The position numbers were made by a program, and so were the translations under genes. Of a stretch of DNA of 64,000 bases, positions 46,079 through 46,426 are shown piece by piece (position 1 is the first letter of the stretch; each line of letters starts with the position of its first letter). The stretch is from the sequence record PZ386951.1. The stretch is one strand, 5' to 3'. This DNA comes from a phage. The notes beneath the pieces are model-generated. The model was given only the letters and a program-made list of their open reading frames with translations, had not been told where the DNA came from and made no database searches.

Positions 46079-46426
46079 TCAATACGGTTTAGCATCAAAT
46101 TTTCTCTCAATTTCAGGTGTGAAATATAATTCTTTACCACGTTTGGAAAAGCGACCAATAATATGATAATTATTCTTATCAAACGTAATATTACCAATAT
46201 CCATAGCTTTCAACCAAATATCGATATTTCTATCCAGCTTTATGTCAAAATTCCAATACGGAGAACTATTACCGAAAATACTGCAAGCGGATTCAGTGAA
46301 ACAACTGCTATAAATCTTGTCTTTAGGAACTACTAATTGATAGACACCTTTAATAAACTGAGGACCTTGCCATTTTGGCTGTTTCGCGTCTTTTTCTAAT
46401 AGAATAGGGTAATAATTAAAATTCAT
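46079..46426 (-). CDS. hypothetical protein between frd and td
   Basis: 115 aa with ATG start; overlaps the frd 3-prime end by 11 nt. Confidence 0.5.

Follow-up and report, generated by a model that had tools for sequence, protein, structure and literature searches.

The 115-aa open reading frame between the dihydrofolate reductase gene frd and the thymidylate synthase gene td, in a 64,000-nt stretch of phage DNA (record PZ386951.1; the whole stretch is called the window here), is the same gene as td.1 of phage T6 and an ordinary copy of an already catalogued gene. Taken as a whole, the evidence is best explained by a genuine gene of the early nucleotide-metabolism operon, placed in the frd-td-nrd cluster and belonging to a family found only in T4-like phages, and we put the probability of this reading at roughly 0.8.

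Organisation of the frd-td junction

A preliminary description of this DNA, made from its letters alone, had noted a 348-nt ORF between frd and td that overlaps an frd about 11 codons longer than usual, and had stated that in T4 the two genes overlap by ATGA with nothing between them. The statement on T4 is right. In the T4 genome (NC_000866), frd encodes 193 aa (145109..145690), td starts from 145112 and the two genes share a 4-nt ATGA overlap with no gene between; td.1 is absent from that genome. The ORF list for the window agrees with the other two points, giving a 348-nt (115-aa) reading frame that overlaps frd, and an Frd of 204 aa as against 193 aa in T4. The td.1 ORF starts with ATG and shares 11 nt with frd (ATGAATTTTAA, 46416..46426), and its stop codon is separated from the ATG of td by 15 nt. 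The ATG of td.1 lies 8 nt upstream of the frd stop codon, from which we infer that translational coupling of the two genes is possible. Over the 193 aa in common, the window Frd is 97% identical to T4 Frd. The features of the locus are collected in Table 1.

Table 1. Features of the frd-td locus in the window, and related genes in other phages (entries with an L number give positions in that locus or contig)
Feature	Position	Strand	Basis
td.1 (115 aa; PHROG 1928; = RB32ORF229c, T6 td.1, Shfl2p237)	46079..46426	-	ORF list, PHROG match
frd (dihydrofolate reductase), 204-aa allele	46416..47030	-	ORF list, Pfam DHFR_1
td (thymidylate synthase), 286 aa, no group I intron/I-TevI	45203..46063	-	Pfam Thymidylat_synt
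td.1 translation start region AGCGGAAAATATG	46424..46436	-	weak GGA Shine-Dalgarno
Frd extension, 11 codons + TAA stop (= frd/td.1 spacer in T2, T6, AndreasVesalius)	46416..46451	-	DNA alignment
A-run TATAAAAATGAA, two extra A's relative to T4, T2, AndreasVesalius (TATAAATGAA)	46446..46457	-	junction alignment
Left repeat copy AAATGAAATAA, at frd stop	46442..46452	-	junction alignment
Right repeat copy AAATGAAACAA, spans td start codon	46055..46065	-	junction alignment
DUF7247 gene, 119 aa	47272-47631	-	
nrdB, 392 aa	41178..42356		
nrdA-nrdB gap (region)	41178-42407		
gene 32-gene 59 gap	49635-49733		
Paralogue B	L014 5332-5673; L015 5020-5364; L005 3317-3676; L006 3290-3643; L012 2808-3155; L013 2809-3156; L048-L050 3001-3360		
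68-69-aa ORF (PHROG 9550)	L008 2048-2254; L014 5670-5879; L006 3648-3854		

The region is 98.4% identical to that of Shigella phage Phaginator and 93-98% identical to those of hundreds of Tequatrovirus genomes. No Rfam family was matched in 44000..48500, a promoter and terminator scan gave nothing exceeding the shuffled background, and no paralogue of td.1 was found elsewhere within the window.

Several mobile elements of T4 are missing from this block of the window. The td gene of T4 consists of two joined exons with I-TevI inside, whereas the window td is uninterrupted and intronless. Equally, the window nrdB is uninterrupted (no I-TevIII), the nrdA-nrdB gap is 51 nt (no mobE) and the gap between gene 32 and gene 59 is 99 nt (no segG).

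The set of ORFs upstream of frd differs between the window and the otherwise near-identical Phaginator. In the window, a DUF7247 gene lies between a DUF5417 (frd.1-like) gene and frd; this position is empty in T4 but occupied in the non-Tequatrovirus contigs L014, L015, L048 and L050. The DUF7247 site is another place where T4 shows the reduced state.

The C-terminal extension of Frd

In T4, T2 and AndreasVesalius, frd ends with GTA TAT AAA TGA (V Y K stop), and in the window with GTA TAT AAA AAT GAA ATA ACG CGT AGC GGA AAA TAT GAA TTT TAA. The two extra A's in the window put the ancestral TGA out of frame, so that 11 more codons are read through the former spacer and into the start of td.1. 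When frd alleles were counted by tblastn, the extended form was found in about 180 records (Phaginator, slur03 and RB51 among them) and is therefore not a sequencing error. The frd genes of RB14 and F2 likewise overlap td.1. When IMG/VR was scanned with exact 18-19-mers for the three junction types, most of the contigs recovered were AT-rich and unrelated. In other genera, Frd carries its own, unrelated tails that overlap the next gene (ESVYERKL, ESVYTPKDI, ESVYGEFRG and others). From these alignments, the extension is read as a neutral by-product of the +2-nt change and the overlap; the allele is common and shows no sign of a separate function.

Coding capacity of td.1

Codon comparisons indicate that td.1 is a real protein-coding gene under strong purifying selection. 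In pairwise Nei-Gojobori estimates among six Tequatrovirus copies (dS up to 0.97), dN/dS was 0.01-0.05 wherever dS was at least 0.07. The window and F2 copies differ by 31 synonymous and 11 non-synonymous changes, with a dS of 0.77. Within Tequatrovirus, the td.1 protein is 92-99% identical as against 84-98% for the adjacent Frd, and homologues at 29-66% identity in other genera conserve its motifs.

These values bear directly on the alternative that the ORF is a chance or decaying frame, made by an indel between frd and td and without a protein product. The Shine-Dalgarno sequence upstream of td.1 is only weak (GGA), as such a frame would have it, but low dN/dS at dS values of up to 0.97, homologues with conserved motifs across genera, coverage of at least 80% of td.1 in 587 of 589 records and a predicted fold of high confidence (pLDDT 92) all argue against it, and the chance-frame reading is effectively refuted already.

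Distribution of td.1 in T4-like phages

A tblastn search with the 115-aa protein returned 589 phage records, 587 of which cover at least 80% of its length. About 363 Tequatrovirus-type records, including T2, T6, RB3, RB14, RB51, AR1 and PP01, match at 90% identity or more. About 226 records match at less than 60% identity and come from phages of Klebsiella, Enterobacter, Citrobacter, Salmonella, Pectobacterium, Serratia, Erwinia and Kosakonia. The window td.1 is 100% identical to the vB_EcoM_FJ1 copy and 99% identical to those of T2, RB14, RB3 and AR1. The gene is named td.1 in T6 (AY262134.2), RB32ORF229c in RB14 and RB51, Shfl2p237, and ar1_242 in AR1; the proteins under these four names are 97-100% identical to the window ORF and occupy the same frd-td position. 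The window protein matches PHROG 1928, labelled function unknown, with an E value of 2.8e-35 (residues 4-111 against profile positions 2-125 of 126). Nothing of substance sets the window gene apart from these; the window differs from some of its kin in that frd is read 11 codons further into td.1, as in Phaginator, RB14, RB51 and F2, and that the td.1-td spacer is 30 nt shorter than in T2 and AndreasVesalius. Our literature search found no paper on td.1, RB32ORF229c, Shfl2p237 or PHROG 1928; the mobE paper cites the T6 record with no mention of td.1.

For a survey of the junction itself, 60 records were sampled evenly down the similarity ranking, and the fractions given here refer to the Tequatrovirus-type rows. 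td.1 was present in about three quarters of these rows, the T4-type direct junction in about one in seven (T4, LF73P3, Sfk20, KNP5, IME339) and a different, 68-aa ORF in about one in nine (Shinka, fPS-65, PYPS2T). As most sampled Tequatrovirus-type records carry td.1, T4 represents the minority state. Mosigvirus ATK47 has an ATGA junction and no td.1. The absence of the gene from T4, Mosigvirus ATK47 and the Shinka-type Tequatroviruses means that it is dispensable, and the preliminary description was right to call it accessory in this sense. Its further claim, that a gene had been inserted into an otherwise conserved operon, stands only in so far as td.1 is absent from T4; against it, td.1 is the majority state in Tequatrovirus and is common across genera.

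The frd-td interval across genera

We inspected the interval in 16 loci, from Tequatrovirus (Phaginator, AndreasVesalius, T6, F2, T2 and Kelasse), KP17 (Jiaodavirus), ZX14 (Kanagawavirus), VAC36 (Marfavirus), PM2 (Mosugukvirus), Melville (Gelderlandvirus), Edwardsiella phage PEi26 and four metagenomic T4-like contigs. The family was found between frd and td in all 16, which cover Tequatrovirus and nine other lineages. In 13 loci the matched member is the gene directly downstream of frd, and in most cases it overlaps the frd stop. At the remaining three loci, those of PEi26 and of two metagenomic contigs, the matched member is a paralogue, and an ORF of 105-111 aa directly follows frd. By synteny, a td.1-type gene at this junction is common across T4-like genomes and missing in T4.

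The paralogue (B, with td.1 as A) has 113-119 aa. Outside Tequatrovirus it is usually the second gene of the interval, next to td and overlapping the td start, and it was found in Kanagawavirus, Marfavirus, Mosugukvirus, Gelderlandvirus, PEi26 and metagenomic T4-like contigs. It was not found in Tequatrovirus, the window included, where A alone is kept. Profiles of A and B align with an hhalign probability of 99.2% (E 2e-19) and both match PHROG 1928, as does the Jiaodavirus homologue. The two share the signature LLExDxxQKKW ... HGxY ... GRFxKxGxxxxF, their size and the frd-td interval, whereas only B has an insertion of ~15 residues (ALVIDGxxPTIDQYKRNP) after the QKKW motif. A and B may work together as a heterodimer.

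A third ORF of 68-69 aa (PHROG 9550) lies just upstream of td in some lineages, and is the same ORF that Shinka-type Tequatroviruses carry as their sole gene in the slot. Its conservation is unusual for such a small phage gene, with 79-81% identity between lineages whose Frd proteins share only 46-48%, and it is mislabelled in records as 'DUF4858' or 'flagellar biosynthesis protein'. Since A, B and the 68-aa ORF vary by lineage, the frd-td interval can be described as a slot for zero to three small genes, of which td.1 is the member adjoining frd.

A candidate natural fusion of Frd and td.1 in phage Kelasse proved to be a mislabel and not a fusion. Kelasse td.1 (L051 1189-1548) is called 'putative dihydrofolate reductase' from a start 12 nt upstream, a label without sequence support.

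A direct repeat at the borders of td.1

Relative to T4, presence or absence of td.1 corresponds to an indel of ~390-420 nt bounded by an 11-nt direct repeat, AAATGAAAYAA. In phages with td.1, the sequence around the frd stop (TAAATGAAATAA in T2 and AndreasVesalius) is repeated where td starts (TAAATGAAACAA). T4 and Mosigvirus ATK47 share the junction GTATATAAATGAAACAATACC, equivalent to a single merged repeat copy. A single recombination between the repeats would interconvert the td.1-bearing and T4-type states.

Such an exchange could have run in either direction. If td.1 was present ancestrally, it would have been lost in T4, Mosigvirus and the Shinka-type phages; the occurrence of the family in the interval at 16 of 16 loci, in several genera, speaks for this, as does the finding that different Tequatroviruses keep different members of the A/B/C set. 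A secondary gain in Tequatrovirus, into an ATGA-type junction, is suggested by four observations: the left repeat resembles a vestigial td start (ATG AAA TAA against ATG AAA CAA), T4 and its sister genus Mosigvirus have identical junctions, the GC content of td.1 is 31.6% against 37-38% in its neighbours, and the td.1 and Frd trees disagree. In the Frd tree, the metagenomic lineage of L014 and L015 groups with ZX14 and VAC36 at 99% bootstrap support. In the td.1 tree it groups with Tequatrovirus at 67%, and the Frd-type split appears in 1% of replicates. Tequatrovirus and L014/L015 are 60-66% identical in td.1 and only 46-49% in Frd; L014 Frd is 61-63% identical to that of ZX14/VAC36, yet between L014/L015 and these two phages td.1 identity is only 36-52%. 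This pattern is suggestive of lateral exchange of td.1 among T4-like phages, at moderate tree support and for a short protein. On an evolutionary scale, then, the earlier notion of an insertion may have some merit: repeat, junctions, tree and GC content suggest, rather than establish, that td.1 was inserted or re-inserted into an ATGA-type junction.

Two smaller features of the junction were observed. A mini-ORF of two codons, ATG AAA TAA, overlaps the frd stop of T2-type phages (46442-46450 on the minus strand of the window; about 1475-1490 in L011). It resembles a mutated td start, ATG AAA CAA, and could have been left behind by the indel event. The interval from the td.1 stop to the td ATG is also 30 nt longer in T2 and AndreasVesalius (...CAGCTTCATAAAATGTATTATAATTTATATA...; L003 3165-3209; L011 1849-1893), and in the extra stretch a GCTT motif like a MotA box is followed by TATAAT; this stretch, missing in the window (46064-46078), Phaginator and F2, may be a middle promoter for td.

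Protein family and predicted fold

An exhaustive HMM search of 1.84 billion cluster representatives gave 22 matches, 20 of which are stand-alone proteins of 95-116 aa. The two longer matches were spurious, P0021 being reverse-transcriptase fragments and P0023 being without a domain. A wider profile search returned solely 113-119-aa proteins of T4-like phages, none of them fused or carrying a Pfam domain. The window protein had no match in Pfam or NCBIfam at E<=1, and sequence and profile searches of the PDB with td.1 gave nothing above noise. The preliminary description had seen no recognisable motifs in the protein, and PHROG 1928 is indeed the only match across Pfam, NCBIfam, PDB sequences and PHROG.

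In both family alignments, the only invariant residues are Q16, W19, G27, G91, K95 and G97, a GRFxKxG hairpin belongs to the conserved signature, and the window protein has all of these. L9, Y29 and F93 are nearly invariant in both alignments, as are N79 and F102 in the alignment of 23 members. The family is mildly basic (median pI 8.9) and aromatic-rich. No acidic or histidine residue is conserved in the family alignments; for this reason, and for want of a Pfam or NCBIfam match, we read td.1 as non-catalytic.

AlphaFold2 with 23 family members gave a model with a pLDDT of 92.1 and a pTM of 0.84, which replaced a run with 4 close homologues (pLDDT 60). The model has strands at residues 6-12, 27-34 and 62-64, short strands at 38-40 and 48-50, a helix at 68-76 and then strands at 80-82, 86-96 and 99-104, with the order of elements b1, b2, b3, helix, b4, b5. 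The high-confidence prediction for td.1 is thus a compact, beta-rich domain with one helix that is mildly basic and rich in aromatic residues. Comparison of the model with solved structures gave no significant match, the weak ones being mostly OB folds, and a structure search of BFVD returned uncharacterised proteins of T4-like phages only. The structure prediction proposed at the outset has accordingly yielded a confident small domain with no significant structural relative. OB folds (S1, RPA/SSB, HIN, Teb1 and the RecO N-terminal domain) are of similar size and have a helix between strands 3 and 4, and in such a comparison the conserved basic and aromatic residues of td.1 fall in the would-be b1-b2 loop and b4-b5 hairpin. 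The order of elements in the model is compatible with an OB-like barrel, and the resemblance is faint.

td.1 compared with homing endonucleases

In the BASEL phages AndreasVesalius, KarlGJung, AdolfPortmann and FriedrichMiescher, td.1 is labelled 'putative homing endonuclease', which would make it a free-standing selfish gene that spreads by cutting ATGA-type frd/td junctions. Its present/absent polymorphism between two conserved genes, the 11-nt direct repeat at its borders, its low GC content and its moderate phylogenetic incongruence with Frd would fit such an element, and segG, mobE and similar genes of T4 are likewise small ORFs between conserved genes, present in some T-even phages. Unlike segG and mobE, however, td.1 has neither a nuclease domain nor conserved catalytic residues: no nuclease family, be it GIY-YIG, HNH, LAGLIDADG, PD-(D/E)XK or EDxHD, was matched at E<=10 across 23 members, no Asp, Glu or His is invariant, and 115 aa is too small for a nuclease and a DNA-binding domain together. 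td.1 is also set apart by its position, which is fixed across genera, and by very strong purifying selection without degraded copies, the latter in contrast to the seg, mob and I-Tev genes of T4 as a whole. Further, td.1 is kept in a block without I-TevI, I-TevIII, mobE and segG, and its occurrence is independent of the td intron. We consider it very improbable that td.1 is a homing endonuclease.

The BASEL annotation is from comparative genomics only, with no assay reported (PMC8594841), and the label (for example at L003 3210-3557) has no sequence support. Mutual exclusion of td.1 with the td intron and I-TevI was also considered and rejected, as all four combinations exist.

Possible functions of td.1

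Of the roles that can be envisaged for the gene, we tentatively propose that td.1 is a non-catalytic binding protein which would be made in a fixed ratio with DHFR through translational coupling. It could contact nucleic acid via an OB-like face, formed by K/Q/K/W of the first loop and R/F/K/G of the last hairpin, or it could be an adaptor for Frd/Td within the dNTP-synthesis machinery, a complex for which gp32 has been proposed as an organiser. We see such a binder, by either route, as a possibility with odds well short of even. T4 and RB69-like phages build their dNTP-synthesis machinery without td.1, which counts against a core Frd/Td role, and the tight linkage of td.1 to frd may be a matter of operon history alone and not of function.

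A more specialised proposal, that PHROG 1928 (td.1 and B) is a T4-like-specific fold with a dedicated role in the thymidylate cycle, would draw support from a gene order that is strictly frd-A-(B)-td, from stop and start codons that overlap and from purifying selection stronger than that on Frd; we nevertheless regard it as doubtful, a distinctly improbable outcome. In one version, an adaptor, possibly an A/B heterodimer, may couple DHFR to TS or tether both to gp32-coated DNA, and would, if true, be a non-covalent counterpart to the bifunctional DHFR-TS found in protozoa. In another, the protein may be an inhibitor that shields the phage dNTP supply from a host nucleotide-depleting defence.

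The preliminary description had suggested an anti-defence gene. td.1 would then be an early host-takeover or anti-defence protein, for example an inhibitor of a host enzyme or of an immune system, nucleotide-depleting or other, and the frd-td interval a convenient early slot. A small, non-enzymatic and dispensable product encoded in a pre-replicative operon, with presence/absence polymorphism within a genus, would suit this role, as would the variable slot with one to three small ORFs (A, B and the 68-aa ORF) by lineage, the GC content of 31.6% against 37-38% in the neighbours and the conflict of the td.1 tree with the Frd tree. Anti-defence genes are, however, usually fast-evolving and mobile between loci, whereas the conservation of td.1 within Tequatrovirus (92-99%) exceeds that of Frd (84-98%), and td.1 has a fixed frd-td position in 16 of 16 loci. 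It has no similarity to characterised proteins in Pfam, NCBIfam, PHROG, PDB or PADLOC, a set of general resources and, in PADLOC, defence-system models; in PADLOC, nothing relevant to td.1 was found. The suggestion thus found no support in these searches and goes back to the gene being small, early, dispensable and uncharacterised, and we think an anti-defence or takeover role unlikely.

Implications

The T4 reference is atypical at the frd-td junction, so that differences from T4 at this place do not amount to novelty. Hundreds of T-even genome annotations include td.1, and copies identical to that in the window have been published; as such the gene matters little, and the longer Frd is a trivial 2-nt frameshift allele. 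Of wider relevance is PHROG 1928, an orphan family with no structural relatives that is tightly constrained in T4-like phages and lies between DHFR and TS. As T2 and T6 carry td.1 and T4 does not, the gene is a cheap and well-defined experimental target.
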